Assembly (NCBI RefSeq): GCF_001677475.2
Contig: NZ_CP015229.1
Reading direction: 5' to 3' (one strand)
DNA: 64,000 nt
DNA from: Escherichia coli
Lineage (GTDB): Bacteria > Pseudomonadota > Gammaproteobacteria > Enterobacterales > Enterobacteriaceae
In this document: positions 1 through 29,359 of the stretch, one piece after another
Layout of the letters: each line of letters starts with the position of its first letter
How positions within the stretch are numbered: position 1 is the first letter of the stretch
The notes under the pieces: generated by a model
The model's database searches: none
What the model saw: only the letters and a program-made list of their open reading frames with translations
Told to the model about the DNA's origin: nothing
Program-made: the position numbers and the translations under genes

Positions 1-290
1 AGCGGATCAATACAGGGCTGGTCAGGGAGAGCAAACAGGGGAAGTTTTACGCCAAATTTAATGCCGGAGCATTGTTGCGTGGCGACATGAAATCCCGCTT
101 TGAAGCGTATGCCACGGGGATCAACTGGGGTATTTATTCCCCTAATGACTGCCGTGATCTGGAAGATATGAATCCCCGACCGGGCGGTGATGTGTATCTG
201 ACACCGATGAACATGACCACCAGTCCCTCTGCTGGCGATGACAACGGTAAGAAAAAGGAGAGTGGAGATGCAGACAAAACAGCGTCTTGA
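1..290 (+). CDS. Phage portal protein, C-terminal end (5' part outside window)
   Basis: Open frame running in from the window edge and ending just upstream of, and overlapping, the prohead protease start. Position matches HK97-type portal-protease-capsid order; the family call rests on synteny more than on recognised motifs. Confidence 0.5.
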   Translation, partial: RINTGLVRESKQGKFYAKFNAGALLRGDMKSRFEAYATGINWGIYSPNDCRDLEDMNPRPGGDVYLTPMNMTTSPSAGDDNGKKKESGDADKTAS

Positions 291-918
291 TATACCGCTG
301 AACCTGAAATCCGTCAGTGATTCTGGTGAGTTTGAAGGTTACGGCTCTGTTTTTGGTGTTAAGGACAGCCACGATGATGTGGTGATCCCCGGAGCCTTTA
401 CCACAACACTCCAGAAATGGAGCGAAAAAAAGGCGCTGCCTGCGTTGCTCTGGCAGCACCGTATGGATGAGCCCATCGGTGTGTACACCGAAATGAAAGA
501 AGATGATGTCGGGCTTTATGTCAGGGGGCGATTACTCGTTGATGATGATCCCCTGGCAAAACGTGCACATGCCCATATGAAGGCCGGTTCTTTAACCGGC
601 CTTTCTATTGGCTACATCCTGAAAGACTGGGAGTACGACCGTGAAAAAGGGGTATTCCTGCTGAAAGAGATCGACCTGTGGGAGGTCAGTCTGGTGACGT
701 TTCCTTCCAATGATGAGGCACGCATCAGCGATGTGAAAAATGCGCTGGCGCGTGGGGAGATCCCTGAGCAGAAAATCATTGAGCGGGTCCTGCGCGATGT
801 TGGACTCTCGCGAACCCAGGCCAAAGCATTCATGGCAGGGGGATATGGCGCTTTATCCCTGCGTGATGCTGAGGATGTGGATGCCGCACTGAATGCACTG
901 AAAAATCTTAAATTTTAA
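268..918 (+). CDS. Phage prohead protease (HK97 family, peptidase U35-like)
   Basis: ORF 238..918 with probable start at ATG 268 (MQTKQRL) after GGAGAGTGGAG RBS. Sits directly upstream of the major capsid gene; sequence resembles HK97-type prohead proteases. Confidence 0.75.
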   Translation: MQTKQRLDIPLNLKSVSDSGEFEGYGSVFGVKDSHDDVVIPGAFTTTLQKWSEKKALPALLWQHRMDEPIGVYTEMKEDDVGLYVRGRLLVDDDPLAKRAHAHMKAGSLTGLSIGYILKDWEYDREKGVFLLKEIDLWEVSLVTFPSNDEARISDVKNALARGEIPEQKIIERVLRDVGLSRTQAKAFMAGGYGALSLRDAEDVDAALNALKNLKF

Positions 919-1779
919 CCAGGAGAAAAATAATGGCTGACATTAAAGATGTGGAGCAGGTCGCGCAGGAGTTGCAGCAGAAGTTTGACGATTTTAAGGC
1001 AAAAAACGACAAGCGCATTGACGCGATCGAACAGGAAAAAGGCAAGCTGGCCGAACAGGTGGAAAGCCTGAACGGGCAAATCAGCGAGCTGGAGAACCTG
1101 AAAAGCGACCTGGAAAAAGAGCTGGCAGACATCAAGCGTCCGGCAGGCGGCACGCAAAATAAAGTTGCCAGTGAACACAAAGAAGCGTTTATCGGATTTA
1201 TGCGCAAGGGGCGTGAAGACGGCCTGCGTGAGCTGGAGCGTAAGGCGCTGCAGGTGGGCAATGATGAAGATGGCGGTTATGCCATTCCGGAGGAACTGGA
1301 TCGCACCATTCTGACGCTACTGAAAGATGAGGTGGTGATGCGCCAGGAAGCCACCGTGATCACCCTCGGTGGCTCGGATTATAAAAAACTGGTGAATCTG
1401 GGCGGCACAGCGTCCGGATGGGTGGGGGAAACGGATGCACGTCCAGAAACCGCCACATCAAAACTGGGTCTGATTGAACCCTTTATGGGGGAAATCTACG
1501 GCAATCCGCAGGCCACCCAGAAAATGCTCGATGATGCTTTCTTCAATGTGGAAGACTGGATCAACAGTGAGCTGGCGCTGGAATTTGCCGAACAGGAAGA
1601 AATTGCCTTTACCAGTGGCGACGGCAGCAAAAAACCAAAAGGTTTTCTGGCTTACGAGTCCACCGATGAAGATGACAAGACCCGTGTATGAGACGACAAT
1701 AACTCAGTCCGCCTGGCGCCGATTATTCTGGCCGGTTTTGTAACCTGAGTGTCATTTACATGATCCAACAGGAAATGGC

Positions 1780-3279
1780 GTGACGCTCAATACTTCTCAG
1801 GTCAGTTACTATATGACTCAGCGTAAGAAAGGTATAACTCAGCATATCTCGGCCATGAAGGCTGGTATCTCAGTCCGTTCTGGTCGTCGGATCGAAAAAG
1901 GAGAGTGGGCAAAAAACAGTGTTCGGCACTGGCGCACACGCAAAGATCCTCTGGAAGCTGTGTGGGACAGCATGCTTGTTCCTCTGTTGAAAGAGAGGCC
2001 GGCTCTGACACCAACAACTCTACTGGAGATGCTACAGGATAAATATCCCGGCCAGTACCCCAACAGCCTTCGAAGAACAATGCAACGGCGGGTTCGCGAA
2101 TGGAAACTACAGTATGGTACAGAGCAGGAGGTCATGTTCCGCCAGCAACATCAGCCCGGCCTGCGAGGCCTGTCGGACTTTACTGAACTGAAAGGTGTAG
2201 TTGTCACCATCGCCGGTAAGTTGTTGGCGCATAAGTTGTATCACTTCCGTCTGGAATGGAGCCACTGGAGCTGGATGCGGGTTGTTCTGGGTGGTGAGAG
2301 CTTCTCTGCTCTGGCTGAAGGCCTGCAGGAAGCCCTCGGACAACTGGGCGGAGTGCCGGTAGAACATAAAACGGACAGCCTGAGGGCAGCATGGAAACAA
2401 CAGGGCGAAGATGGACGCCGCGAGCTGACTGAGCGTTATGCTACTCTCTGTCAGCACTACGGAATGCAGGGCGTACACAATAATGCCGGTCGGGGCCACG
2501 AAAATGGCTCGGTTGAAAGTGCCCACGGACATCTGAAAAGGCGTATCTGTCAGGCGCTGATACTGCGGGGCAGTAACGACTTCAGCACCATAGAAGAATA
2601 TCAGGCCTTCATCACTCAGCAGGTTATGCGGCACAACCGTAACAATCAGGATCTGGTCAAGGAAGAACGTCTTCATCTGAAACCGCTGCCGCTTCGTCGC
2701 AGTGCTGACTATGATGAGCTGACTGTGAGGGTTAGTCGCAGCAGTACCATCAATGTGAAGCACGTCGTCTACAGCGTACCTTCCCGGCTTGTAGGTCAAC
2801 TGTTACGGGTCAGGTTATGGGACGATCGTCTGAGCTGTTACGTTGGCAGCAGCGAGGTCATGAGCTGCCCTCGCGTCAGACCAGAAAAAGGGAAGACGCG
2901 GGCCCGTCGTATCGACTTCCGACATGTGATCGACAGTCTGGCAAAAAAGCCCGGTGCGTTCTGCCATGCAACGCTGAGAAATGACATCCTGCCGGACGAT
3001 GAATGGCGGAGGCTGTGGCGTCGCTTATGTAATCATCTGGAGCCCGATATGGCAGGAAGGCTGATGGTACATGCCCTGAAACTGGCTGCAGGATACGACG
3101 ATATCTCAGTCGTGGCAAAAGGTATGGAGCAGATGCTGAATACCCCGGGAAACGTGGATCTGCACCGGCTGATGCGCTTCCTGGGTATAAAAGAAAAGGC
3201 GTTGCCGGTAGTCAATGTGATACAGCATAACCTGAGCAGTTATGAGCAACTACTGCGTGGCAAGGGAGGTTCGCAGTGA
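1780..3279 (+). CDS. istA: IS21-family transposase IstA
   Basis: 499-aa ORF directly upstream of and overlapping the IstB-like gene; GTG start at 1780, alternative ATG at 1813. Confidence 0.75.
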   Translation: MTLNTSQVSYYMTQRKKGITQHISAMKAGISVRSGRRIEKGEWAKNSVRHWRTRKDPLEAVWDSMLVPLLKERPALTPTTLLEMLQDKYPGQYPNSLRRTMQRRVREWKLQYGTEQEVMFRQQHQPGLRGLSDFTELKGVVVTIAGKLLAHKLYHFRLEWSHWSWMRVVLGGESFSALAEGLQEALGQLGGVPVEHKTDSLRAAWKQQGEDGRRELTERYATLCQHYGMQGVHNNAGRGHENGSVESAHGHLKRRICQALILRGSNDFSTIEEYQAFITQQVMRHNRNNQDLVKEERLHLKPLPLRRSADYDELTVRVSRSSTINVKHVVYSVPSRLVGQLLRVRLWDDRLSCYVGSSEVMSCPRVRPEKGKTRARRIDFRHVIDSLAKKPGAFCHATLRNDILPDDEWRRLWRRLCNHLEPDMAGRLMVHALKLAAGYDDISVVAKGMEQMLNTPGNVDLHRLMRFLGIKEKALPVVNVIQHNLSSYEQLLRGKGGSQ

Positions 3280-4031
3280 GCAATATCCATCACCTTGAAC
3301 ATAGCCTGCGTAAACTACGCCTGACACGAGTTGGAGCTGAATGGCACGCTCTGGAAAAACGAGCGCTGGCAGAAGGCTGGACACCATCGCGCTATCTTCT
3401 GACGCTATGCAATGAAGAACTCCTGTGGCGCGAGAGTGAAAAACTGCGTCGTTATAAAAAGGAGGCCCGGTTGCCAGTTGCCAAAACGCTGAGCGAATAC
3501 GACTTCAGTCAGGTGCCGGAACTGAATGGAGCTCAGTTCCGGCAACTCTGTGAAACGACAGACTGGGTTGATGCAGGAGAAAACGTTCTGCTGTTCGGAG
3601 CCAGCGGGTTGGGGAAAAGCCATCTGGCGGCAGCGATCGTGGATGGCGTAGTAGGTCAGGGCTACCGGGCCCGGTTCTACAGCGCAGGAGAGCTGTTGCA
3701 GGAACTACGTAAAGCCAGAGCTCAGTTGAAACTGAATGAGCTGCTACTGAAACTGGATCGCTACCGGGTGATAGTGGTGGATGATCTTGGCTATGTCAAA
3801 CGCGATAGTGCCGAAACGGGTGTGCTGTTCGAGTTAATAGCGCATCGCTATGAACGTGGGAGCCTGGTGATAACCAGTAACCATCCGTTCAGCATGTGGG
3901 GCAGCATCTTCGTGGATGAGACTATGGCGGTGGCTGCGGCAGACAGGCTGATCCATCACGGATATATGTTCGAACTGAAAGGGGAAAGCTACAGGAAAAA
4001 GACAGCGAAGGCAGTAACAAGCGCGACTTGA
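3276..4031 (+). CDS. istB: IS21-family helper ATPase IstB
   Basis: 251-aa ORF with P-loop GASGLGKSHLAAA and a DnaA/IstB-like AAA+ layout (Walker B-like VIVVDDLGY). Confidence 0.85.
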   Translation: MSNIHHLEHSLRKLRLTRVGAEWHALEKRALAEGWTPSRYLLTLCNEELLWRESEKLRRYKKEARLPVAKTLSEYDFSQVPELNGAQFRQLCETTDWVDAGENVLLFGASGLGKSHLAAAIVDGVVGQGYRARFYSAGELLQELRKARAQLKLNELLLKLDRYRVIVVDDLGYVKRDSAETGVLFELIAHRYERGSLVITSNHPFSMWGSIFVDETMAVAAADRLIHHGYMFELKGESYRKKTAKAVTSAT

Positions 4032-4616
4032 TGTCGCCCTGAAGGGTGCGGCCAGTATAGTTGGCGCGAGTCGGCAAAACTAGTTGACGTCTAATACCCG
4101 TGCGTTTGGCAAACTTCAGCACATTGCTTCCGGTGCGGCTTCCGGCGTGACTACCGATGCGATCATTAAACTGATTTACACCCTGCGCAAGGCGCACCGC
4201 AGCGGCGCGAAGTTCATGATGAACAACAGCAGCCTGTTTGTCATTCGTCTGCTGAAGGATAACGACGGAAATTATCTGTGGCGTCCGGGTATTGAGCTGG
4301 GGCAGCCTTCTTCACTGGCGGGGTATGGCATCGTTGAGAATGAGCAGATGCCGGATATTGCTGCCGATGCAAAAGCTATTGCGTTTGGTAACTTCAAACG
4401 CGGCTATACCATCGTTGACCGCATCGGTACCCGTATCCTGCGCGATCCGTACACCAACAAACCGTTTGTGGGCTTTTATACCACCAAACGAACCGGCGGT
4501 ATGCTGGTGGATTCTCAGGCGATTAAGCTGATGAAGATCGGTGCTGCAACCCGCCAGAAAGCCGCTGAGTAATGCAGTTTTTTATGCCCGCACAGTATTG
4601 CGGGCAGGAGTTTCTG

Positions 4617-4934
4617 ATGGCAGCAATAGTGGAAAAACTCAGGGCGCAGTGCCGTATTGATACAGATGATGCAACTGATGATGAGTTACTGATGCTGTAT
4701 TTCCGGGCTGCCTGCCGCAAGGCAGAAAATTTTATCAACCGTAAGCTTTATGAGGAGACGGTGCCGGAGGGGGATCCAGAAGGGGTGCTTATAGCTGATG
4801 ATGTTTTGCTGGCGCTTATGTTGCTGGTCGGACACTGGTACGAAAACAGGGAAAATTCCTCAGATGTCAGCAAGGCACCAATCCCGTTTGGTTTTTCTTC
4901 TCTGCTGGAGCCTTATCGTTTTATTCCTTTGTAG
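4617..4934 (+). CDS. Head-tail connector / DNA-packaging protein (phage gp6-like)
   Basis: ORF 4572..4934 with probable start at ATG 4617 after AGGAG; small acidic protein directly downstream of the capsid gene. Confidence 0.6.
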   Translation: MAAIVEKLRAQCRIDTDDATDDELLMLYFRAACRKAENFINRKLYEETVPEGDPEGVLIADDVLLALMLLVGHWYENRENSSDVSKAPIPFGFSSLLEPYRFIPL

Positions 4935-4942
4935 GAGGAACC

Positions 4943-5281
4943 ATGCAGGCGGGCAGATTACGTGATCGCGTAATTATTCTGAATGTCACCACCGCCCGCT
5001 CTCCGTCAGGGCATCCGGTGGAGACGGTGACGGAGGGAGCTACCGTATGGGCAGAAGTTAAGGGTATCAGCGGGAGGGAGATAATCTCAGGCGGAGCAGA
5101 AACCGCTCAGGCTACGGTCAGAGTCTGGATGAGATTCCGGCGCGATGTGACAGCGACTTCACGTCTGAAAGTGCTGACCGGTGCATTTAAAGGGGCAATT
5201 CTGGGTATAGAAGGTCCACCAATACCGGATGCACGCGCTACCCGGCTTGAAATACTCTGCAGCCTGAAGGGGAATGTGTGA
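4943..5281 (+). CDS. Head-tail adaptor / head closure protein
   Basis: 112-aa ORF following the gp6-like gene with RBS AGGAGG; conserved position in HK97-like head modules. Confidence 0.6.
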   Translation: MQAGRLRDRVIILNVTTARSPSGHPVETVTEGATVWAEVKGISGREIISGGAETAQATVRVWMRFRRDVTATSRLKVLTGAFKGAILGIEGPPIPDARATRLEILCSLKGNV

Positions 5282-5727
5282 TGGATTTCAGTCTTGATTT
5301 TTCAGGTCTGGCGGATATTGCACGGGATCTGGAGACGCTCAGCAGGGCAGAAAACAATAAGGTACTGCGCGATGCCACCCGTGCCGGTGCTGAAGTTATG
5401 CGGGATGCAGTTGCTGAACGTGCGCCGGAGCGAACCGGGAAACTGAAGAAAAATGTGGTTGTTCTCACTCAGCGTTCAAAGCGTCGGGGGGAAATTATCT
5501 CGGGTGTCCACATTCGTGGACGGAACCCGCGAACCGGAAACAGTGATAACAGCATGAAAGCCAGCGATCCCCGAAATGCGTTTTACTGGCGCTTTGTGGA
5601 GCTGGGAACGATAAACATGCCCGCGCATCCGTTCATTCGCCCGGCATTCGACACGACAGAGGAACTGGCAGCACAGATTGCCATACAGCGAATGAATCAG
5701 GCTATTGATGAGGTCTTAAGTAAATGA
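5278..5727 (+). CDS. HK97 gp10-like phage protein (tail completion / neck)
   Basis: 149-aa ORF with ATGA start/stop overlap to the upstream gene; N-terminal MMDFSLDFSGLADI resembles the HK97 gp10 family. Confidence 0.6.
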   Translation: MMDFSLDFSGLADIARDLETLSRAENNKVLRDATRAGAEVMRDAVAERAPERTGKLKKNVVVLTQRSKRRGEIISGVHIRGRNPRTGNSDNSMKASDPRNAFYWRFVELGTINMPAHPFIRPAFDTTEELAAQIAIQRMNQAIDEVLSK

Positions 5728-6068
5728 GGGAGACCGCACTGTATTCCCTGCTGTCTCAACTGGCCGGAGGACAGGTTTATCCTTATGTGGTCCCGCTGAC
5801 GGAGGGAAAGCCTGCGGTATCTCCGCCGTGGCTGGTGTTTTCTGTGGTGTCTGACACGGCGTCTGATGTGCTTGATGGTCAGGCTGAATCAAGAATTACC
5901 GTGCAGATCGATGTCTGGGCAACAGTACCTGATGACGCAGATGATATCCGTGAGCAGGCGCTTGATGCGGTAAGGCAACTTGCACCCTCCGTTATTTCTA
6001 AAACTCAGGGTTATGATCCTGATTCCCGTCTGAGCAGAGCCACGCTTGAATTTCAGGTAATAGCCTGA
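5724..6068 (+). CDS. Tail terminator / DUF3168-like tail component
   Basis: 114-aa ORF, translationally coupled, located just before the major tail protein gene. Confidence 0.5.
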   Translation: MRETALYSLLSQLAGGQVYPYVVPLTEGKPAVSPPWLVFSVVSDTASDVLDGQAESRITVQIDVWATVPDDADDIREQALDAVRQLAPSVISKTQGYDPDSRLSRATLEFQVIA

Positions 6069-6127
6069 GGTCGTTAATGATTTTACCCACCCGCCGCTGG
6101 CGGGTTTTTTATTTTCAGGAGACGAGT

Positions 6128-6832
6128 ATGTCCTCTAATTTTGAGCGTTCGCAACTGACGAAAATTATGATTTCGTCTGCACCGGTAACAGCAGAAACCT
6201 TGGATTCTGCCAGCTATCTTGGCCTGAGCTGTACAATCAAAGAGGTGCAGTTTACCGCAGGACAAAAGCAGGATATTGATGTCACCACGCTGTGTTCTGT
6301 TGAGCAGGAACATATTAACGGCCTTGGTGCCGCGTCAGAGATTTCCATGTCAGGCAACTTTTACCTCAATGCTGCCCAGAACGCGTTGCGCAGTGCCTAT
6401 GACAATGACACCACGTATGGCTTTAAAGTTATTTTTCCGTCAGGCAACGGATTTACCTTTATGGCAGAGGTGCGTCAGCATACCTGGTCTGCAGGAACCA
6501 ATGGTGTTGTGGCTGCAACGTTTTCCCTGCGCCTGAAAGGTAAACCTGTGCTGACGACAGAGCCGCTGAAAGTGAAGGTCGATTTAAACAGCACGCTGCA
6601 GGTTTCTGCCGGAGCAAAACTCGAAATGGTGGTTGAGGCTGCCGGTGGTGTGCCGCCTTATTCTTATGTCTGGAAGAAAGGTGGTTCTCCTGTTTCCGGA
6701 CAGACGGCGGCAACGTTCAGTAAGGCATCAGCAGCATCCGGTGATGCCGGTGCGTATACCTGCGAGATTTCTGATTCAGCAAGCCCTGTTAACAAGGTGA
6801 CCTCCACTTCCTGCACTGTTACCGTCAGTTAA
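6128..6832 (+). CDS. Major tail protein with C-terminal Ig-like (Big_2-like) domain
   Basis: ORF 6077..6832 with probable start at ATG 6128 after AGGAGACGAG. The C-terminus has an Ig-like decoration domain as in lambda gpV. Confidence 0.7.
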   Translation: MSSNFERSQLTKIMISSAPVTAETLDSASYLGLSCTIKEVQFTAGQKQDIDVTTLCSVEQEHINGLGAASEISMSGNFYLNAAQNALRSAYDNDTTYGFKVIFPSGNGFTFMAEVRQHTWSAGTNGVVAATFSLRLKGKPVLTTEPLKVKVDLNSTLQVSAGAKLEMVVEAAGGVPPYSYVWKKGGSPVSGQTAATFSKASAASGDAGAYTCEISDSASPVNKVTSTSCTVTVS

Positions 6833-7218
6833 TGAGGATAGATGTGATGACTAAAAATATCCGTAATCTGGCACTGGCAACGATGTCGGGGTTTCGTCAT
6901 AAAACCGTTGATGTGCCTGAATGGGAAGGAGCAACGGTTGTGTTACGGGAACCTTCTGCAGAAGCCTGGTTGCGCTGGCAGGAGATCGTTAAAGCCAGGG
7001 AAGATGATACATCGCCATCCGTTGCAGAGCGTGCCCGCCGAAATCTTGAGGCGGACGTTGAACTGTTCATTGATGTTCTGTGTGATACCGGGCTGCAACC
7101 CGTATTTTCAGAGGATGATCGTGAACAGGTGATTGCCGTGTATGGCCCGGTGCATGCCCGACTTCTTCGCCAGTCTCTGGAACTGATCAGTGGTGCCGGA
7201 GAGGTTAAAAAAAAGTAG
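6832..7218 (+). CDS. Tail assembly chaperone (gpG-like)
   Basis: Lies between the major tail and tape measure genes and ends ...GEVKKK* on an A-run. Alternative start ATG 6847 has a better RBS (GAGGA). Confidence 0.75.
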   Translation: MRIDVMTKNIRNLALATMSGFRHKTVDVPEWEGATVVLREPSAEAWLRWQEIVKAREDDTSPSVAERARRNLEADVELFIDVLCDTGLQPVFSEDDREQVIAVYGPVHARLLRQSLELISGAGEVKKK

Positions 7219-7520
7219 CGCTTCCGGGGATGCGTTTTCTGATGATGCTGGCGCTCAGGATGGGGCGCACATTGTCAGAGTTACGCCGGGAAATGTCCGC
7301 ATCAGAAATCATGATGTGGGCAGAATTTGACAGGTTCAGCCCGCTGGGGGACGAACGGGCTGATATCCGGGCTGCCCAGATTGTTTCAGCTGTTTACGGT
7401 GCGCAGGGAGTCAAAGTGCCACTGAATGATGCACTTCTTCAGTGGGAGAAGGAGCAGACAGAAGGTGCCTCAGATCCATTTGCCGGAATGGAAAACGCGC
7501 TTTTAATAGTGTCTCAGTGA
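7209..7520 (+). CDS. Tail assembly chaperone -1 frameshift extension (gpT-like part of the G-T fusion)
   Basis: The -1 frame is open from 7209 through the ORF 7230..7520 and is entered at the slippery heptamer A AAA AAG (7209-7215). Confidence 0.7.
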   Translation, partial: KKVALPGMRFLMMLALRMGRTLSELRREMSASEIMMWAEFDRFSPLGDERADIRAAQIVSAVYGAQGVKVPLNDALLQWEKEQTEGASDPFAGMENALLIVSQ

Positions 7521-7560
7521 GTCAACATAACCGCTTCGGCGGTTTTTTTTCGTCCGGAGA

Positions 7561-10500
7561 ATGAGTGTGGCGACATTACGTGAACTGATTATTAAAATCT
7601 CGGCAAACTCCCGGTCCTTCCAGTCGGAGATCGCCCGGGCTTCGCGTATGGGGCAGGATTACTACCGCACCATGCAGAACGGAGGCCGACAATCCGCTGC
7701 TGCATCACGTGAAATGCGGCGTGCACTGGCAGAAGTGACGGATCAGATAAATACGGCGAAGTCTTCGGCACTGAATATGGCGGGGGCATTTGCCGGGGCT
7801 TTTGCCACCGGACATCTTATTTCCCTTGCTGATGAGTGGAATTCAGTAAATGCCCGTCTGAAACAGGCTACGCAATCCAGTGATGATTTTCAGGCATCAC
7901 AACGTGAATTAATGGCAATCAGCCAGAGAACGGGGACGGCTTTTTCAGATAACGCCAGTCTTTTTGCCCGCTCTGCTGCTTCCATGCGGGAGTATGGCTA
8001 CAGTTCTGAGGAGGTACTGAAAGTCACCGAGGCGATCTCCACGGGCCTGAAATTATCCGGTGCCAGTACAGCAGAAGCCAGTTCGGTGATCACGCAGTTC
8101 AGCCAGGCACTGGCGCAGGGAGTGCTGCGCGGTGAAGAGTTTAACGCCGTGAATGAGAGCGGTGATCGTGTTATTCGTGCGCTGGCTGCGGGAATGGGCG
8201 TTGCCCGTAAGGATCTGAAGGCTATGGCGGATGATGGAAAGCTGACCGCCGATAAGGTTGTTCCTGCGTTGATTAGTCAGCTTGGGGCGTTGCGTGATGA
8301 ATATGCAGCAATGCCTGATACGGTTTCATCCTCTGCAACCAAAGTTGAAAACGCCTTTATGGCCTGGGTTGGTGGTGCGAACGAGGCAAGCGGAGTGACG
8401 AAGACGCTTTCCGGAGTGCTGAATGGTGTTGCAGGCAATATTGATACCGTTGCAACCGCTGCCGGTGCTCTGGTTGCCGTCGGGGTAGCCCGATATTTGG
8501 GCAATATGGCGTCTTCTGCTGGAGCTGCAACTGCCGGATTAATTACCGCAGCCAGAAACGAAGTGGCTCTTGCGGAAGCGCAGCTCCGGGGAACACAGAT
8601 AGCAACAGCCAGGGCGCGTGCGGCGGTTTATCGTGCGCAACAGGCGGTTGCGGCTACCCGTGGTACTGAAAGGCAGGCAGCCGCAGAAGCGAAACTGGCT
8701 GCTGCCCAGGCGTCACTTACCCGTAATATTGCGGCCAGAACAGCAGCACAGACAACGCTGAATACTGTCACGTCAGTGGGGAGTCGTCTGTTAAGTGGGG
8801 CACTGGGGCTGGTTGGTGGTGTGCCGGGGCTTGTCATGCTGGGGGCTGCGGCCTGGTACACGATGTATCAGAATCAGGAGCAGGCCAGAGAATCTGCACG
8901 CCAGTATGCCGCAACAATCGACGAAATTCGCCAGAAAACGTCGGCAATGTCGCTTACTGAAGCGTCAGATAATGAGGAAAAGACGCGACAGGCACTGAAG
9001 GAGCAGAACAGGTTAATTGACGAGCAGAAAAGTAAGATTAAATCCTTACAGGAAAAAATTGCTGGCTATCAGTATGTGCTGGCAAACCCGGGCTGGACAA
9101 CCGATAACGGTTTTATGATTAACCACATGACGTCGGTAAAAACTGTCACAGAAGGGCTTGCAGAAGCAACAAATCAACTGGCAGTTGAACAGTCTCGCCT
9201 CACTCAAATGCAGGGCAAAGCGCAATCCATTCAGGATGTGCTTGCCGGGCTGGAGGAGCGACGGGTGGCGTTGATCCGTCAACAGGCGGCGGAACAAAAT
9301 AAAGCGTATCAGTCCCTGTTGATCATGAATGGGCAGCATACCGAGTTTAATCGTCTTCTCGGGCTTGGTAATGAGTTACTTCAGCAGCGTCAGGGGCTGG
9401 TGAATGTACCATTACGACTGCCACAGGCCACCCTGGATGATAAACAGCAGAATGCGCTGAATAACAGCGAGCGCGAACTGGCTCTGTCCCGCCTGAAGGG
9501 GGAAGCCCGTGAGCGTGCCCGACTGGGTTATGCTGCGGATGATCTCGGCTTTGTGGGAGAGGCGTATCAGACAGCCAGACAGAATTATATCAATAACTCA
9601 CTGGATGCCTGGCGAAATAACCAGGCAAATAAACCCAAAGCGCATAAAAAGACCGAAGCGGAAAAAACAGAAGATATTTATAAACGGCTGATTAAACAGC
9701 AGAAAGAGCAGATAGCACTGGCAGGGCAGAATACTGAACTGGCTAAGATGAAATATCAGGTCAGTCAGGGCGAATTATCAACCCTGTCAGAAGCGCAGAA
9801 AAAAACGCTTTTGCAGAATGCAGCACTCATCGACCAGAAAAAGATTCGTGAGCAGCTTGCTGCGTATGAGAGCAGTCTGGCGGACAGTAATGCCAGTGCC
9901 CGGGCATCTGACGAAGCGCAGTTGCTGGGATATGGTGAAGGCTCACGGATGCGTGAACGACTCCAGGAAATGTGGAGTATCCGGCAGACGTTTGAGCAGA
10001 AAAATAACGAGCTGCTGAGACAGTATCAGGCCGGAGAAATTGAAGAAGCCCTGTGGAAACAGGAGAAAGAACTGAATAAAAAATATCTGGAAGAGCGTCT
10101 CGGCGATCAGCAGGATTATTATGCAAAGGCTGATGCTTTACGCAGTAACTGGAATGCCGGACTCCAGGAGGGACTGACCAACTGGGCAGACAGTGCCACC
10201 GATTATGCTTCACAGGCGGCAGATGCTGTCGTTTCCACGATGGACGGGCTGGTATCAAATATTTCCGATGCACTGGCCGGAAATGTTGTGGACTGGAGAA
10301 ACTGGGGGAGTTCAATTCTCCAGGAAGTTTCAAAAATTCTGATGAACGCTGCCATCGTTAACGGGCTGAAGTCACTTTCCAAAAGCATGTCCGGTGCCGG
10401 AGGATGGCTTGGTACGGTCGGCGACTGGCTTTCCGGTGCAGTGGCAAACGCAAAAGGTGGTGTTTATACATCGGCAAATCTGAGTGCTTACAGTAACACC

Positions 10501-11838: not shown

Positions 11839-11842
11839 TCCC

Positions 11843-12586
11843 ATGACAGAGACAGAATCAGCGATTCTGGCGCACGCCCGGCGATGTGCGCCAGCGGAGT
11901 CGTGCGGCTTCGTGGTGAGAACGCCGGAAGGGGAAAGATATTTTCCCTGCGTGAATATCTCCGGTGAGCCGGAGGAGTATTTCCGGATGGCTCCGGAGGA
12001 CTGGCTGCGGGCAGAAATGCAGGGTGAGATTATGGCGCTGGTCCACAGCCACCCCGGTGGTCTGCCCTGGCTGAGTGAGGCCGACCGGCGGTTGCAGGTG
12101 CAGGGTGATTTGCCATGGTGGCTGGTCTGCCGGAGAGCGATTCACAAGTTCCGCTGTGTGCCGCATCTTACCGGGCGGCGCTTTGAGCACGGGGTGACGG
12201 ACTGTTACACGCTGTTCCGGGATGCTTACCATCTGGCGGGGATTGAGATGCCGGATTTTCATCGTGAGGATGACTGGTGGCGTCACGGTCAGAATCTCTA
12301 TCTGGATAATCTGGAGGCCACGGGGCTGTATCAGGTGCCGCTGTCAGCGGCGCAGCCGGGCGATGTGCTGCTGTGCTGTTTTGGTTCATCGGTACCGAAT
12401 CATGCAGCCATTTACTGCGGTGATGGCGAGCTGCTGCACCATATTCCTGAACAACTGAGCAAACGAGAGAGGTATACCGACAAATGGCAGCGACGCACAC
12501 ACTCCCTCTGGCGTCACCGGGCATGGCACGCATCTGCCTTTACGGGGATTTACAACGATTTGGCCGCCGCATCGACCTTCGTGTGA
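11843..12586 (+). CDS. Tail assembly protein K (lambda gpK-like; MPN/JAB plus NlpC/P60 domains)
   Basis: ORF 11768..12586 with start at ATG 11843 (MTETES). Contains a JAMM-like HSHPGG motif. Confidence 0.85.
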   Translation: MTETESAILAHARRCAPAESCGFVVRTPEGERYFPCVNISGEPEEYFRMAPEDWLRAEMQGEIMALVHSHPGGLPWLSEADRRLQVQGDLPWWLVCRRAIHKFRCVPHLTGRRFEHGVTDCYTLFRDAYHLAGIEMPDFHREDDWWRHGQNLYLDNLEATGLYQVPLSAAQPGDVLLCCFGSSVPNHAAIYCGDGELLHHIPEQLSKRERYTDKWQRRTHSLWRHRAWHASAFTGIYNDLAAASTFV

Positions 12587-13131
12587 AAACGGGGGCTGAA
12601 GCCATCCGGGCACTGGCCACGCAGATCCCCGCATTTCGACAGAAACTGAATGAGGGCTGGTATCAGGTGCGCATTGCAGGGCGTGATGCAGGTGAAACCG
12701 AATTATCTGCCCGTCTTAATGAGCCGCTGGCAAATGGTGCCGTGATCCACATCGTACCGCGTCTGGCGGGTGCCAAAAGTGGCGGTATTTTTCAGGCGGT
12801 GCTGGGGGCGGCGCTGATTGCGGTGGCATGGTGGAACCCTGTGGGCTGGCTGGGTGCCGCGGCTGTATCGGGCATGTATGCGGCAGGGGCCAGTATGATC
12901 CTGGGCGGAGTGGCGCAGATGCTGGCACCGAAAGCCAGGACGCCCACGGCAGCAAGTACAGATAACGGCAAACAGAACACCTATTTCTCCTCACTGGATA
13001 ACATGGTTGCCCAGGGCAATGTTCTGCCCGTTCTGTACGGTGAAATGCGCGTGGGGTCGCGGGTGGTCTCTCAGGAGATCAGCACGGCAGACGAAGGGGA
13101 TGGTGGTCAGGTTGTGGTGATTGGTCGCTGA
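12484..13131 (+). CDS. Tail assembly protein I (lambda gpI-like)
   Basis: 215-aa ORF overlapping the end of K, with a hydrophobic Gly/Ala-rich C-terminal half as in gpI. Alternative start ATG 12523. Confidence 0.8.
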   Translation: MAATHTLPLASPGMARICLYGDLQRFGRRIDLRVKTGAEAIRALATQIPAFRQKLNEGWYQVRIAGRDAGETELSARLNEPLANGAVIHIVPRLAGAKSGGIFQAVLGAALIAVAWWNPVGWLGAAAVSGMYAAGASMILGGVAQMLAPKARTPTAASTDNGKQNTYFSSLDNMVAQGNVLPVLYGEMRVGSRVVSQEISTADEGDGGQVVVIGR

Positions 13132-13190
13132 TGAAAAACGTTTATGTGAAACCGCCTCCGGGCGGTTTTGTCGTTTATGGAGCGTGAGGA

Positions 13191-16100
13191 ATGGGTAAAG
13201 GCAGCAGTAAGGGGCATACTCCGCGCGAAGCGAAGGACAACCTGAAGTCCACGCAGTTGCTGAGTGTGATCGATGCCATCAGCGAAGGGCCGGTTGAAGG
13301 TCCGGTGGATGGATTAAAAAGCGTGCTGCTGAACAGTACGCCAGTGCTGGACAGTGAGGGGAATACCAATATCTCCGGCGTCACGGTGGTGTTCCGGGCC
13401 GGTGAGCAGGAGCAGACACCGCCGGAGGGATTTGAATCCTCTGGCTCCGAGACGGTGCTGGGTACGGAAGTGAAATACGACACGCCGATCACCCGGACCA
13501 TCACGTCGGCAAACATTGACCGACTGCGTTTTACCTTCGGCGTGCAGGCACTGGTGGAAACCACCTCAAAGGGGGACAGGAATCCGTCGGAAGTCCGCCT
13601 GCTGGTTCAGATCCAGCGTAATGGTGGCTGGGTGACGGAAAAAGACATCACCATTAAGGGCAAAACCACCTCGCAGTATCTGGCCTCGGTGGTGGTGGGT
13701 AACCTGCCGCCGCGCCCGTTCAATATACGGATGCGCAGGATGACGCCGGACAGCACCACAGACCAGCTGCAGAACAAAACGCTCTGGTCGTCATACACCG
13801 AAATCATCGATGTGAAACAGTGCTACCCGAACACGGCACTGGTCGGCGTACAGGTGGATTCGGAGCAGTTCGGCAGCCAGCAGGTGAGCCGTAATTATCA
13901 TCTGCGCGGGCGCATTCTGCAGGTGCCGTCGAACTATAACCCGCAGACGCGGCAATACAGCGGTATCTGGGACGGAACGTTTAAACCGGCATACAGCAAC
14001 AACATGGCCTGGTGTCTGTGGGATATGCTGACCCATCCGCGCTACGGCATGGGGAAACGTCTTGGTGCGGCGGATGTGGACAAATGGGCGCTGTATGTCA
14101 TCGGCCAGCATTGCGATCAGTCGGTGCCGGACGGTTTTGGCGGCACGGAGCCGCGCATCACCTGTAATGCGTACCTGACCACACAGCGCAAGGCGTGGGA
14201 TGTGCTCAGTGATTTCTGCTCTGCGATGCGCTGTATGCCGGTATGGAACGGGCAGACGCTGACGTTCGTGCAGGACCGACCGTCGGATAAGGTGTGGACC
14301 TATAACCGCAGTAATGTGGTGATGCCGGATGATGGTGCGCCGTTCCGCTACAGCTTCAGCGCCCTGAAGGACCGCCATAATGCCGTTGAGGTGAACTGGA
14401 TTGACCCGAATAACGGCTGGGAGACGGCGACAGAGCTTGTGGAGGACACGCAGGCCATTCTCCGTTACGGTCGTAACGTCACGAAGATGGATGCCTTTGG
14501 CTGTACCAGTCGGGGGCAGGCACACCGCGCCGGGCTGTGGCTGATTAAAACAGAACTGCTGGAAACGCAGACCGTGGATTTCAGCGTCGGCGCAGAAGGG
14601 CTTCGCCATGTGCCGGGCGATGTTATTGAAATCTGCGATGATGACTATGCCGGTATCAGCACCGGCGGGCGCGTGCTGGCGGTGAACAGCCAGACCCGGA
14701 CGCTGACGCTCGACCGTGAAATCACGCTGCCATCCGCCGGCACCACGCTGATAAGCCTGGTTGACGGAAGTGGAAATCCGGTCAGCGTGGAGGTTCAGTC
14801 CGTCACCGATGGCGTGAAGGTAAAAGTGAGCCGTGTTCCTGACGGCGTTGCAGAATACAGTGTGTGGGGGCTGAAGTTGCCGACGCTGCGCCAGCGCCTG
14901 TTCCGCTGTGTGAGTATCCGTGAGAATGACGACGGCACGTATGCCATCACCGCCGTGCAGCATGTACCGGAAAAAGAGGCCATCGTGGATAACGGGGCGC
15001 ACTTTGACGGCGACCAGAGCGGCACGGTGAATGGTGTCACGCCGCCCGCGGTGCAGCACCTGACCGCCGAAGTCACCGCAGACAGCGGGGAATATCAGGT
15101 GCTGGCGCGCTGGGACACGCCGAAGGTGGTCAAGGGTGTGAGCTTCCTGCTTCGCCTGACCGTGGCAGCGGATGACGGCAGTGAGCGGCTGGTCAGCACA
15201 GCCCGGACGACGGAAACCACATACCGCTTCAGGCAGCTGGCGCCAGGAAATTACAGTCTGACGGTCCGGGCGGTAAATGCCCGGGGACAGCAGGGGGATC
15301 CGGCGTCGGTATCGTTCCGGATTAACGCCCCGGCAGCGCCTGCCACAATTGAACTGATACCGGGGTATTTTCAGATAACGGCGGTCCCGCGTCTTGCGGT
15401 GTATGACCCGACGGTGCAGTTTGAGTTCTGGTTCTCGGAAAATCAGATTACGGATATCCGGCAGGTTGAAACCACAGCCCGCTATCTCGGTACGGCGATG
15501 TACTGGACAGCTGCCAGTATTAATATCAGGCCGGGCCATGATTATTACTTTTATATCCGCAGTGTGAACATCGTCGGTAAATCAGCGTTTGTGGAAGCTG
15601 TTGGCCAGCCGGTTAATGATGCTGAGGTGTATCTCAATTTTTTTGAAGGGAAAATAAACAGCACCCTGCTGGGACAGGAGCTGAACGATCGTATTAATGC
15701 CTCGGCATTGCGCAGTGAAGTTGAGCAACTGGAGGATGAGATCAATCAGCAGATAGAGAGTGATATTGCTGAAGTGACCCAAAAAATCGGGGAGACAGAA
15801 AACAGCCTCACACAGCTGGTTGCGAAAAAAAATGATGAGCTGTCACTGGGTATATCACAGGTGAGCCAGAGAGTGGATAACGTCAGCAGCGAACTCACGC
15901 AGACGGTCAGTCAGAGTAATGAGGAGAATGCACGCCAGATAGCGCAGGTTCGCCAGTATGTGGATCAAAAAAGCAGTGAAATCATGACGACAACGGACCA
16001 AAAGCTGGGAGATCAGGAGGCCACCATCCAGCAGATACAAAAGGTTCAGACGGACACCAGTAATAACCTGAACAGTATGTGGGCCGTGAAACTGCAGCAG

Positions 16101-16445
16101 ATGCAGGATGGTCGCCTTTATATTGCGGGTATCGGTGCCGGTATTGAGAATACCCCTGACGGTATGCAGAGCCAGGTGCTGCTGGCGGCAGACAGGATTG
16201 CGATGGTTAATCCTGCGAATGGTAATACAACACCCTTGTTTGTGGCTCAGGGGGATCAGCTGTTCCTGAATGAGGTTTTCATGTCCAGGGCGACGATTGA
16301 TTTTGCGGAAATTACGGGGGTTCTTCGTTCTTCGGGATTTGAAGTCAGGGGACAGGGAGGCTGGGATCTGAGCCGGGAACTGAACTGCTTCAGGGTCGAT
16401 GATGAAAACAATGTCATTCGGGTGAGAATGGGCAGGTTACTCTGA
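13191..16445 (+). CDS. Host specificity / tail tip protein J (central tail fibre)
   Basis: 1084-aa ORF after K and I. Conserved gpJ-like N-terminal two-thirds, fibronectin-like middle region, and a divergent coiled-coil C-terminus. Confidence 0.9.
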
Positions 16446-16454
16446 GGAGCGAAT

Positions 16455-16826
16455 ATGTCATTGCAATATGGCTGGCAAATCATGGATGCAACGGGCAGGG
16501 TGGTTACGGATACGTCTGCAATTATGTGCAGACGTTTATTCTCATATCATGTTCCGATCATTGAAGCACTGGCATCAAATATCCCGTGGTCAGTGACATT
16601 TGGTGTCAGTTTTAACAATGGAACCCCATTCACACATTGTGTGACACGGAAGGGGATTACGGTGCCTTCCGGCAGGGTATGGTATCCGGTGGCACCGGAT
16701 ATTATCATCAACGGTAACAGCGTCACCTTAACCTATACAGCAAGACATGTTTCATATCCTGATGATTTGGGGTATCTCCTGGCTGTTGGCGGTGTGGATG
16801 TTCATTGTGGGGTTTACCACCGATGA
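16455..16826 (+). CDS. Hypothetical phage protein (unknown; paralogous to the N-terminus of the next gene)
   Basis: 123-aa ORF with RBS GAGGAG upstream. Visibly AT-richer than J. Confidence 0.5.
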   Translation: MSLQYGWQIMDATGRVVTDTSAIMCRRLFSYHVPIIEALASNIPWSVTFGVSFNNGTPFTHCVTRKGITVPSGRVWYPVAPDIIINGNSVTLTYTARHVSYPDDLGYLLAVGGVDVHCGVYHR

Positions 16827-17614
16827 GCGGTTATGGCATTCAGCTAATTAATGACTATGGACTGACAGTGGCAGATGCGGAAGATGTGAATTATGTTTTG
16901 CGAAGTGCCGGTCAGTTCAGTAATGGTCATTTTATCTCCGGCGGGAACACGACGAGCGCAATCAGTCTGATAACAACCGGGATGAACAGTCCTTTATTGT
17001 TTCTGAAGATGAATACAAATAATTCGAGGCTGACACAAAAAGCCGGGGTCAATAAGCTGTCCCCTGATTTTGTTAATCCCGGAACATATATATCGGTGAC
17101 AAGTATAGACGTGTTTAAATGGTGGAATATAAATATTGGCACGGTTCAGTATTATATTTTTGACAAGTGGATACCGCCGGAGCGAAGTTCATACGGTATG
17201 CAACTGTTTGATGGTTCAGGCGGAATTATATTTGATTCCGGGTGGTATTTTCTGAAATTACGGGATGTGAAATGGCTTGAACCGCAATATCCAAACCATT
17301 CAGGGCATGAAAGCGGTAGTAACTGGAGTAATGTCGGGCATGTTTCCGATGATGTCAATAACACAGCATTATCAATGCCTCTGGGCAGGGGCTGGATTGA
17401 GTCATCCTTACAGGGTGGATATTACTATAATGAGTGTTGTCATCTTGACGGTAACGGTAATCTCTATATATCCATAATACCGACAGGTGTTTATCTCGAT
17501 ATATCACCGACAGGCGGCTGGGTTGGCTCAATGAAAACCCAGGTCATGGTTGCGGATGTATCCGGCTTACCGACGAATTATAACCCTGTGGAGATAAGGA
17601 ACGTTAACGGTTAA
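16823..17614 (+). CDS. Hypothetical phage protein (unknown; internally repeated YG-Q-L motif)
   Basis: ORF 16805..17614; the probable start ATG 16823 overlaps the upstream stop (ATGA). Followed by a strong intrinsic terminator. Confidence 0.5.
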   Translation: MSGYGIQLINDYGLTVADAEDVNYVLRSAGQFSNGHFISGGNTTSAISLITTGMNSPLLFLKMNTNNSRLTQKAGVNKLSPDFVNPGTYISVTSIDVFKWWNINIGTVQYYIFDKWIPPERSSYGMQLFDGSGGIIFDSGWYFLKLRDVKWLEPQYPNHSGHESGSNWSNVGHVSDDVNNTALSMPLGRGWIESSLQGGYYYNECCHLDGNGNLYISIIPTGVYLDISPTGGWVGSMKTQVMVADVSGLPTNYNPVEIRNVNG

Positions 17615-17665
17615 GTGCTGTAACGAAATCACGGCAAAATGAAACAGAAAATCTGAATGTAATCA

Positions 17666-17694
17666 CAGCCCGCCGGAACCGGCGGGCTTTTTTG
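17666..17694 (+). terminator. Rho-independent terminator (GC stem-loop plus T-run)
   Basis: GCCCGCCGG-AACC-GGCGGGC followed by TTTTTTG. Confidence 0.7.
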
Positions 17695-17704
17695 TGGGGT
17701 GAAT

Positions 17705-19801
17705 ATGGCAGTAAAGATTTCAGGTGTCCTGAAAGACGGAGCGGGTGAGCCTGTCGTAAACTGTGCGATTGAATTGCGTGCCAGAAGAACCAGTCCGACA
17801 GTTGTGGTTAATATTGTGGCAACCTGTCTTACGGGAAGTGATGGCGGGTATACTATTAATGCTGAGCCGGGATTTTATGATGTATTTTTGTCCCGCACAG
17901 GGCATCCTCCTGTAAAGGCGGGGGAAATTTATGTTGCACCGACAGATGAGCCGGATACGCTGAATGCTTTTCTGGATGCACCAAAGGAGGGTGATTTACG
18001 CCCTGAGGTAATGAAGCGTTTTGAGGAAATGGTAAATACCGTTGTTCGCTTGTCTGAGCAGGTGGTCAGTGACAGGGAGAGAGCAGAAACAGCTGCTGAT
18101 GATGCAATTAATGCAGCAACATCTGCGGCGGGTAGTAAGGATGAGGCAGAAGAGCTAAAAAATCAGACACAGCAGAGCGCCGAAGCTGCAGCCGGAAACG
18201 CACAGCAGACGGCACAGGATGTGACGACAACCGCAACGGCCCGTGATGATGCGGAACGTTTTGCGAATGAGGCTGAAAACAGCGCACAGTCATCAGGCAC
18301 AGCGCGGGACGAATCAGTCGATGCCGCCGAACGCGCCCGCCTTTATCATAATGCCGCATCAGCAGCAGCGACCAGTTCAGAACTGTCGGCAAATGCGGCG
18401 CTGGGGCACAAAAACAGTGCCGCCGAATACGCCCGACAGGCTAAAGCCAGCCAGGATGCAGGTGCAGACAATGCGCAGGAAGCGAAACAGTTCAGGGATG
18501 AGGCACAGCAGATTGTTGATGACCTGAATGCAACAAATGCCAGCACGACAGAAAAAGGTCTGGTGCAACTCTGTAGTGATACGGACAACGACAGCGAGGA
18601 ACTGGCTGCCACGCCAAAGGCTGTCAGACTCGTCATGGACGAGACGAAAACAAAAGCGCCACTGGACAGCCCGGCTTTCACCGGCATCCCAACCACCCCA
18701 ACCCCACCGGATGATGCCGCCGGTCTGGAAGCAGCGAACGCAGCGTTTGTGCGCAAACTGCTTGCTGCGCTGGTTGGCTCATCGCCGGAAGTTCTGGACA
18801 CCCTGAACGAACTGGCAGCGGCGCTGGGCAATGACCCGGAGTTTGCGACCTCAATCATGAATGCGCTGGCAGGCAAACAACCGCTTAATGACGTCTTAAC
18901 GGCAATCAGCGCACTGACGCAACGGTCAGATAATCTTCTGTACTTCAATACGGACGGGAATGCCTCACTGTCTCTGCTGTCAGAGAAGGGCCGCGCATTA
19001 CTGGCGCATGACACAGCTGAAGCCATGCGCACGGAGCTTGAGCTGAAAGCAGCTGCGACGATGGAACCCCAGAGTGATATTCGCGACCGCACATCCGGCA
19101 GGCTGGCGCTGTCCGGGATGTATGGGTTTGGACAGGCATTCACCAGCGCCGACGCTCTGTCATTTAACGGACAGGCTGATTTCGTTGAGTGGTTGAAGAA
19201 AGTCACGCCGGGGCGGTATGCGGTCAGTATTACAGACTCCTCGCAACTGCTTACCGGTACCACGCAATTTAACGGCATTATTGATGTGATGTGGTCACCG
19301 TACGCCAACAGTGAATCTGATACAGTCCGCAAATTTAAAACCCTGATGTGTTACAACCAGTATTATCAGGGTGAACACTGTATTCACTATATGCAGTACC
19401 GGTACAACGACAGTGATAACAGCTGGAACATGTCATCGCGGGTAGTTGTATACGACGGAGATTCTCTCGCTTATTTATTATCGCGGTTATCCGGTAATGG
19501 TCCGTTCTCATATTACCAATACCCGGCCGTCGGTGTGCCGATTATGGCGGTATATCAGGGAGAAAGTTTTGGTGAAAATGCTTCTCTGGGACTCGGTGAT
19601 ACTGTGCCGGGTTCCCGTCTTGGTCCTCTGGCCATGAGTGCACCGGTTAGTGATACAGGGACATACGCATCCTCACCGCAGGTTGTGATTGGCGGTGCCG
19701 GTGAATACAACTTCCCCGGTCGTTACATGGCGCTTTCGGGCTTAGGTAACAATTATGGTACTCAGCGTGGCTTTATCGGTCTTTTTGTACGCATTGAGTA
19801 A
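17705..19801 (+). CDS. Side tail fibre protein (lambda Stf-like N-terminus)
   Basis: Starts MAVKISGVLKDGAGEPV, matching the conserved Stf N-terminal domain. Has a coiled-coil middle and a divergent C-terminal receptor-binding region. Confidence 0.85.
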   Translation: MAVKISGVLKDGAGEPVVNCAIELRARRTSPTVVVNIVATCLTGSDGGYTINAEPGFYDVFLSRTGHPPVKAGEIYVAPTDEPDTLNAFLDAPKEGDLRPEVMKRFEEMVNTVVRLSEQVVSDRERAETAADDAINAATSAAGSKDEAEELKNQTQQSAEAAAGNAQQTAQDVTTTATARDDAERFANEAENSAQSSGTARDESVDAAERARLYHNAASAAATSSELSANAALGHKNSAAEYARQAKASQDAGADNAQEAKQFRDEAQQIVDDLNATNASTTEKGLVQLCSDTDNDSEELAATPKAVRLVMDETKTKAPLDSPAFTGIPTTPTPPDDAAGLEAANAAFVRKLLAALVGSSPEVLDTLNELAAALGNDPEFATSIMNALAGKQPLNDVLTAISALTQRSDNLLYFNTDGNASLSLLSEKGRALLAHDTAEAMRTELELKAAATMEPQSDIRDRTSGRLALSGMYGFGQAFTSADALSFNGQADFVEWLKKVTPGRYAVSITDSSQLLTGTTQFNGIIDVMWSPYANSESDTVRKFKTLMCYNQYYQGEHCIHYMQYRYNDSDNSWNMSSRVVVYDGDSLAYLLSRLSGNGPFSYYQYPAVGVPIMAVYQGESFGENASLGLGDTVPGSRLGPLAMSAPVSDTGTYASSPQVVIGGAGEYNFPGRYMALSGLGNNYGTQRGFIGLFVRIE

Positions 19802-20400
19802 TGAGGAAATCAGGCATGAAAATCAGAGCGGTGAAAGGCATCAGAAACGCACATTATCTTGAAAATGGTGCGATTGACTGCGAGGTGTTATTTGAAGGTG
19901 AAACGGAGTTCGCCATGTATACCGCCATACAGGATGATACAGCCCCGACAGGCCAGCACATCTGGCAGGAGCTGCAAAGCGGGAAATGGGGCGAAATCGT
20001 CCCGTTCACCGTCACGCCTGAACTTATTGCAGCGGCAAAGGATGCCAAAAGGCGGGAGATTGAGGCATGGCGCGACAGTCAGGAAAACGTTGAGTTTATT
20101 TTCACGTTTGATGGTCGTCGTTTTGATGGTGGAAAAACCTCGCAGTCACGCCTTGCGCCCGTGGTTGCAACAGCACAGGCCGGACTGCTTCCGGAGGGTT
20201 TTTTCTGGACTGATGCGGATAATAACAACGTCGTACTGACCAGGGAGAAACTTATTGCGCTGAACGATGCCATGATGGTGGCCATGGTGGCGGAGGGCTT
20301 TAAAATCCACGAACGTCAGCGGGAGATGAAAGAGGAGCTGAGTAGCCTCGAGGATTTACACTCAATCAGGAAGTTGCTCGTTAACTCAGAAAAAATTTGA
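19801..20400 (+). CDS. Putative tail fibre assembly protein (atypical Tfa-like)
   Basis: 199-aa ORF overlapping the stf stop and last gene before the tRNA. Assigned by position; it does not closely resemble canonical lambda Tfa. Confidence 0.45.
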   Translation: MRKSGMKIRAVKGIRNAHYLENGAIDCEVLFEGETEFAMYTAIQDDTAPTGQHIWQELQSGKWGEIVPFTVTPELIAAAKDAKRREIEAWRDSQENVEFIFTFDGRRFDGGKTSQSRLAPVVATAQAGLLPEGFFWTDADNNNVVLTREKLIALNDAMMVAMVAEGFKIHERQREMKEELSSLEDLHSIRKLLVNSEKI

Positions 20401-20508
20401 GATACCAAAGACATCAAAGAGGTGCTGGCGGGAAAATATCGCAGATATTAAAAACTGAAAATATACCAATTGGTATACCAAGTTTATACCAAGAACCCAA
20501 AAAGCAAA

Positions 20509-20530
20509 GGGGCTACCATTTGGTAACCCC
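20509..20530 (-). terminator. Hairpin plus T-run downstream of serT (probable tRNA terminator)
   Basis: On the minus strand GGGGTTACCA-AA-TGGTAGCCCC is followed by TTTGCTTTTT. Confidence 0.5.
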
Positions 20531-20539
20531 TTGATTATT

Positions 20540-20627
20540 TGGCGGAAGCGCAGAGATTCGAACTCTGGAACCCTTTCGGGTCGCCGGTTTTCAAGACCGG
20601 TGCCTTCAACCGCTCGGCCACACTTCC
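20540..20627 (-). tRNA. serT: tRNA-Ser (anticodon UGA)
   Basis: Reverse complement reads GGAAGTGTGGCCGAGCGGTTGAAGGCACCGGTCTTGAAAACCGGCGACCCGAAAGGGTTCCAGAGTTCGAATCTCTGCGCTTCCGCCA: 88 nt with long variable arm and encoded CCA. Confidence 0.95.
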
Positions 20628-23962: not shown

Positions 23963-23980
23963 CAGCGAAGGAGAATCATC

Positions 23981-28199: not shown

Positions 28200-28210
28200 A
28201 GGAGAAAATC

Positions 28211-29347: not shown

Positions 29348-29359
29348 GGAGCAGGAACA

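Follow-up and report, generated by a model that had tools for sequence, protein, structure and literature searches.

Where does phage DNA give way to host chromosome beside the tRNA gene serT, and what kind of element lies on the phage side? The question is raised by a stretch of 64,000 nucleotides from the Escherichia coli contig NZ_CP015229.1 (assembly GCF_001677475.2), referred to here as the window, in which nearly every long open reading frame (ORF) within positions 3-20400 is on the plus strand, and a series of phage structural genes has its last stop codon at 20400, 139 bp off the end of tRNA-Ser (about 140 bp from the CCA end in the original prediction). We conclude, with a probability of roughly 0.9, that positions 1-20534 represent the late-gene arm of a lambdoid siphovirus, a temperate phage that a tyrosine integrase inserted into the 3' half of serT. 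The lambdoid prophage arm that had been proposed at serT is thus borne out by both profile identities and ORF layout.

The junction at serT

The features that define the right end of the element are these:

20401-20534: attR, phage arm (the P arm by lambda convention), different from K-12 and identical in the genome N96
20507-20532, minus strand: intrinsic terminator for serT, phage-type (terminator scan and fold)
20535-20599: att core identity block of 65 bp, consisting of TTATT and the 3' 60 nt of serT, through the anticodon loop (20589-20595)
20540-20627, minus strand: serT, tRNA-Ser(UGA), intact and equal to the K-12 gene, with its CCA end at 20540 (ARAGORN and alignment)
20640-20668, minus strand: promoter-like site upstream of serT (promoter scan)

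ARAGORN recognises one tRNA in the window, tRNA-Ser(tga), and alignment with K-12, a genome that lacks the insertion, gives perfect identity from 20535 rightward (TTATT and the whole tRNA), with the sequences differing leftward. The 65-bp att segment reads TTATTTGGCGGAAGC...TTTTCAAGACCG, the copy ending at TTTTCAAGACCG, just beyond the anticodon loop. An intact tRNA gene therefore stands at the junction with phage-type sequence reaching to 5 bp from its CCA end, as is expected where a tyrosine integrase has used a tRNA gene. Because the identity with K-12 starts at 20535 and the hairpin at 20507-20532 is phage-derived, the alignment places the recombination junction inside 20535-20599 and not 140 bp off the tRNA; the earlier description of the arm as abutting the 3' end of serT had the right gene and understated the overlap, the junction falling between the anticodon loop and the 3' end. 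Only a single copy of the serT 3' segment is present in the window, so that one junction is visible, that on the tail-fibre side as had been stated. On the same grounds, the idea that the window might hold another att copy or prophages in tandem was rejected.

The serT terminator hairpin comprises 11 pairs and a T-run (-24 kcal/mol, z -3.8), and since it differs from the K-12 hairpin the terminator is one supplied by the phage. The K-12 shape is retained with several paired positions differing, the host terminator having been replaced by a structural equivalent. The phage arm from about 20457 is common to other serT prophages that have different tail-fibre genes, and contains four clustered TATACCAA(G/T) repeats at 20462-20493. 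Exact copies of TATACCAAG occur only twice in the 64 kb, both within this cluster, and motifs of this type are found once in the integrase-side arm of each of the three attL sequences and three times in the attR of the AH19B041 prophage (both described below); these repeats are putative arm-type sites of the integrase.

Site-specific recombination by a tyrosine integrase into the 3' half of serT, the yccA/tRNA-Ser(tga) site of Sp4 and several Shiga toxin (Stx) phages, would account for this arrangement. The attP of the phage would have contained a duplicate of the final 60 nt of serT together with 5 bp more. Strand exchange, presumably at the anticodon loop, would have restored serT in full and without change at the tail-fibre end (attR), where its terminator is phage-supplied, leaving the displaced bacterial 3' fragment and the integrase beside yccA (attL), outside the window. 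Crossover at the anticodon loop is a recognised class among tRNA-integrating phages, and this, together with the extent of the identity block, is the basis for presuming it here.

A 701-bp segment of K-12 spanning yccA to serT was used to probe 5426 complete E. coli genomes. In K-12 the 3' end of serT is followed by 206 bp and then by yccA, which is the core-gene neighbour that had been anticipated at this position. The interval is uninterrupted in 4657 of the genomes, so that the empty site expected for a tRNA-integrated phage is well represented, and in the approximately 770 interrupted genomes the break falls at probe base 504, a point 60 nt inside serT. A junction of the window type, between a tail-fibre assembly gene and serT, was found in only 44. 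These counts agree with the view of the arm as strain-specific accessory DNA; the original prediction had named the presence of the same phage genes beside serT in all E. coli as a finding that would tell against it, and this is not the case, because the site is polymorphic and the junction is confined to those 44 genomes. With the boundary of accessory DNA fixed inside serT by alignment, at 20535-20599, the gain is mainly one of annotation.

Relatives at the same site

The structure of the far end can be read in related prophages. One is at serT in AH19B041 (NZ_CP196316.1, about 2997-3054 kb), with a right arm that is 95.8% identical over 64% of the 20.5 kb and reaches serT. Its order is yccA, a K-12-type hairpin, the 65-bp copy of the serT 3' segment, integrase, a DUF4224 protein and an exonuclease, continuing to tail fibre and serT, and the 65-bp block forms a direct repeat at the two prophage ends. 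O157:H7 Xuzhou21 and ETEC4073 have the same attL, followed by a 339-residue tyrosine recombinase, a DUF4224 protein and an exonuclease. The 339-residue integrase of these relatives contains PF00589 and lies beside attL and yccA; its exact sequence is very widespread (2281 index blocks) and is beside yccA, tusE and yccX in 10 of 10 among the matches listed, all of them in other strains. The integrase and attL that had been anticipated at the far end are thus present in every related prophage examined, the far end in this genome lying outside the window; by analogy, the same attL and integrase are probably present here. Among isolated phages, tail genes are found at 94-96% identity with those of the window.

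The same comparisons bear on whether serT was the recombination target at all, or is simply close to an insertion in yccA or in the yccA-serT intergenic region. Published reports do label the site yccA (PMC8190617, PMC9431244), and 139 bp separate the end of the last phage ORF from the tRNA. However, phage-type sequence continues to 5 bp from the CCA end, the segment duplicated in the relatives is the 3' 60 nt of serT, the interrupted genomes are broken within serT, and yccA is intact in AH19B041, Xuzhou21 and ETEC4073. An insertion that spared serT has next to no likelihood, and is already refuted by the alignment of the junction.

Several points weigh against integration in serT as we describe it. 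The crossover point within the 65-bp identity block is unreadable from sequence, attL and the integrase of this genome are outside the window, in which a single att copy is visible, and the same prophage is in no complete genome of the collection, the best match reaching about 95% identity over 77% of the 20.5 kb. The left arm may therefore be a different one or lack some of its length.

Integration in serT also accords with published prophages at this locus. The Sakai prophage Sp4, of about 48 kb, lies between yccA and tRNA-Ser(tga) (PMC8190617), Stx2e, Stx2k and Stx2a prophages occupy a 'yccA' site (PMC9431244), serT is among the prophage loci of Shiga toxin-producing E. coli O121:H19 (PMC8767318), and an Stx2f prophage of E. 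albertii lies downstream of serT (PMC10673567). Sp4 and the Stx2e, Stx2k, Stx2a and Stx2f prophages have the chromosomal site and orientation seen here, with the integrase at yccA and the tail end at serT. The structural modules of the window are mosaic and are not those of O157. Within the window neither stx nor effector cargo can be seen, and the capsid gene is disrupted by an insertion sequence (IS). Given these published yccA/serT prophages, the element adds one more mosaic to a family and a site that are already known; it is ordinary, and it can be assigned to the Sp4-type yccA/serT integration family.

The AH19B041 prophage shares with the window an HK97-type head, lambda-type tail genes and, nested in its terL gene, the type of capsid-forming satellite considered below; it differs in that its capsid gene is intact, its J is long and accompanied by lom, its side tail fibre is another one and ISEc10 is absent. 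The serT prophage of N96 (L002, positions 14167-17332) shares attR and the tail-fibre assembly gene with the window, and has a head module with a ClpP-capsid fusion and an IS66 element in lom. This occupant illustrates that serT-site prophages are mosaic and IS-ridden. N96 provides the best junction match among complete genomes, and was rejected as a model for the whole prophage on account of its different head module and its IS66.

The late genes from portal to tail fibre

The structural genes were identified by profile searches against NCBIfam, PHROG and Pfam:

3-290, plus strand: phage portal gene, 3' end, cut at the window start (frame-3 translation open to 290)
268-918, plus strand: HK97-family prohead protease, S78 (TIGR01543, E 4e-50; 216-residue gene call at the matching position in L008)
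933-1686, plus strand: HK97-type major capsid gene, 5' part (TIGR01554 positions 2-242 of 385)
1687-4095, plus strand: ISEc10 (IS21 family), full length, 2409 bp, with istA at 1780-3279 and istB at 3276-4031
4096-4572, plus strand: major capsid gene, 3' part (TIGR01554 positions 241-385 of 385; aligns to the remainder of the intact gene)
4617-4934, plus strand: head-tail connector
4943-5281, plus strand: head closure protein
5281-5727, plus strand: HK97 gp10-like protein
5724-6068, plus strand: tail terminator
6128-6832, plus strand: major tail protein with Ig-like domain
6847-7218, plus strand: tail assembly chaperone G
7230-7520, plus strand: tail assembly chaperone T
7561-10806, plus strand: tail tape measure protein, 1081 residues (phrog_339, 1338 bits, full length)
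10799-13131, plus strand: lambda-type tail tip genes, gpM-like first (phrog_14, phrog_18, phrog_30, phrog_32)
11140-11838, plus strand: gpL
11843-12586, plus strand: gpK
12484-13131, plus strand: gpI
13191-16445, plus strand: gpJ central tail fibre, short type, 1084 residues (Pfam FNIII-A_GpJ, Phage-tail_3, Ig_J, Ig_J_second, and Phage_Tail_Tip at 945-1077)
16455-16826, plus strand: ORF of 123 residues, first of two replacing lom; putative separately encoded receptor-binding locus
16823-17614, plus strand: ORF of 263 residues, second of the two in the same putative locus
17705-19801, plus strand: side tail fibre, 700 residues
19816-20400, plus strand: DUF4376 tail-fibre assembly protein

Head, connector, tail tube, tape measure, gpM/L/K/I/J and side-fibre genes therefore follow one another on one strand, as in lambdoid siphoviruses. 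The order of portal, S78 protease and HK97-fold capsid gene resembles HK97, and the tail tip of gpM-L-K-I-J, with side tail fibre and assembly genes after it, resembles lambda, as does the integrase of the relatives in reading toward attL. What sets the element apart is its attB, a tRNA gene of which the phage carries the 3' half, and a J without the receptor-binding end of lambda. The portal stretch is identical to the end of a 413-residue Phage_portal gene in a draft contig (L008/L017), the block at 4617-6068 matches TIGR01560, TIGR01563, TIGR01725, phrog_347 and phrog_78, and that at 6128-7520 matches phrog_158, phrog_344 and phrog_14766, the last of which covers both chaperone ORFs. The lengths of the tail tip genes agree with those of annotated relatives, and the side fibre and its assembly gene match phrog_2636 and phrog_1141 and are annotated likewise in N96. 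The series had been called complete, which does not hold: it begins inside the portal gene, there is no terminase gene within the window, and the capsid gene is split.

The 5' part of the capsid gene is 97.4% identical to the intact AH19B041 gene up to base 1686, where ISEc10 begins. The istA (499 residues) and istB (251 residues) products exceed the NCBIfam cut-offs (NF033546, 226 bits against 160; NF038214, 267 bits against 200), a 7-bp target duplication, ACCCGTG, is present at 1680-1686 and 4096-4102, and terminal repeats are present though imperfect, all as expected of the IS21 family. The ends and the duplication were read by comparison with the ISEc10 copy in RM9088, which has an 8-bp duplication as opposed to the 7 bp here. 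That copy lies in another gene and was rejected as a shared insertion event. Because ISEc10 interrupts the major capsid gene, at about profile position 242 of 385, the intact capsid gene of a plaque-forming prophage is lacking and the prophage is unable to make its own capsids; being defective, it is not to be counted as inducible. The element is 99.9% identical over its whole length to annotated ISEc10 copies, which suggests a recent insertion rather than long decay. Apart from the window, four short-read contigs are the only records with an identical truncated capsid protein.

At the other end of the series, gpJ is 93% identical to the J of a relative to about residue 835 and divergent beyond. 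It stops right after the Phage_Tail_Tip domain, about 150 residues short of the C-terminal receptor-binding extension of the lambda type, and its C-terminal end aligns end to end with the C-terminus of gp59, a J-like protein of Rtpvirus IME253. Where relatives carry lom, the window has the 123- and 263-residue ORFs, whose products match gp60 and gp61 of this virulent phage, encoded directly after gp59, with identities of 65% and 75%, respectively. Neither product has a Pfam match at any E-value, and the profile of the 263-residue family has no match in the PDB by sequence. The combination of short J and two ORFs was found in only 6 of the 5426 complete E. coli genomes, and the same order of short J followed by genes of about 120 and 260 residues occurs in a Salmonella prophage contig. 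A 'RBP locus downstream of gpJ', that is, one for a receptor-binding protein (RBP), has been described for small siphophages (PMC8594841; bioRxiv 10.1101/2025.07.07.663478).

A J-like protein without the C-terminal receptor-binding extension and then putative dedicated RBP genes is the arrangement of Rtp- and T5-like phages, and the locus appears, from these alignments, to have been transferred from virulent Rtp-like phages into a temperate tail. It differs from the RBP loci of virulent siphophages (Rtp, IME253 and Oekolampad; BASEL collection, PMC8594841) in being located upstream of a side tail fibre within a temperate lambdoid prophage. No gene for a superinfection-exclusion lipoprotein adjoins the RBP-like ORF, the 84-bp gap at 17615-17698 being without an ORF; IME253 has a 61-residue gene at this position. 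A low-G+C stretch at 16-18 kb was considered as a moron such as lom, and was rejected because it corresponds to the J-end/RBP module. An RBP-like module of virulent-phage type in a temperate tail would be of modest use in predicting phage host range.

The upstream flank, a satellite in terL, and the host chromosome

The draft contig NJSK01000038.1 (GCA_002516285.1) is 100% identical to window positions 1-1748, ending 62 bp into the IS, and extends upstream through at least 18 kb more phage DNA with portal, a split terL and the small terminase subunit gene TerS. Its terL is in pieces of 397 and 241 residues, separated by an element of about 15 kb that might excise. The element (1275-16520 of this contig, L017; also L003, 12862-28110) encodes an integrase, two AlpA proteins, Bro-N, a helicase/primase, a single-stranded DNA-binding protein and PerC, and has its own morphogenesis set of capsid, S78 protease, portal, connector, HNH, TerS and TerL, with no tail genes. 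By this gene set it is a satellite resembling those phage-inducible chromosomal islands (PICIs) that form capsids, for which only the tails of a helper are reportedly required (bioRxiv 10.1101/2022.09.08.507074); satellites integrated within prophages have been described before (noted in PMC10085698). The same nesting in terL occurs in nine or more further genomes or contigs (AH19B041 and eight other contig contexts), with differing replication modules. The satellite is probably also present in the genome studied here, as the 1.7-kb identical overlap indicates. Capsid-forming satellites nested in a prophage terL are, like the RBP-like module, of modest use for host-range prediction.

One interpretation of so much disruption is that the element is a cryptic remnant, of which the late-gene arm alone survives, the integrase, immunity region and attL having been deleted and the element fixed in place. 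The capsid gene split by ISEc10, the terL split by a mobile element in the matching draft contig and a left end outside the window all fit with this. On the other hand, that contig continues through at least 18 kb of phage DNA upstream, the closest prophage at serT to carry the same nested element is of full length and includes both integrase and attL, and the 99.9% identity of ISEc10 to other copies suggests that it inserted recently. We consider a remnant of this kind unlikely, and favour an integrated temperate phage with a damaged capsid gene.

A different possibility is that the tail genes have been kept to serve a resident capsid-forming satellite, the prophage acting as a donor of tails (and of lysis). 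The capsid gene is dead and every tail gene is full length, the matching draft contig has the PICI-like element in the prophage terL, and capsid-forming PICIs are reported to need helper tails alone (bioRxiv 10.1101/2022.09.08.507074). However, the ISEc10 insertion looks recent and strain-specific, and the intact tail genes are therefore explicable without selection; moreover, induction and particle formation are hypothetical here, and the satellite is outside the window and is placed in this genome by the 1.7-kb overlap. Retention for a satellite is accordingly improbable. Also improbable is a composite unit in which the prophage would give tails, including the borrowed RBP-like module, and lysis, and the satellite would give capsid and packaging; were it real, the released particles would be satellite heads on prophage tails. 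Integration of a lambdoid phage in serT, as set out above, remains the preferred reading.

To the right of serT the window contains host chromosome. The core DNA at 21000-31000 (hya-app) has a best identity of 98.3% among the 5426 complete E. coli genomes, so that the host lineage seems not to be represented in this RefSeq set; the best value for the intergenic and hyaA junction region is 98.5%. The wrbA and torS/torT phage integration sites are unoccupied in the window. Between hyaA and putA, by way of app, gfc, tor, wrbA and rut, the flank is collinear with K-12 at 97-98% identity, and the sole differences are the IS1D of K-12 beside gfcA, which the window is without at 38684-38692, and one of about 140 bp near ymdF/rutG, at 56425-56459.

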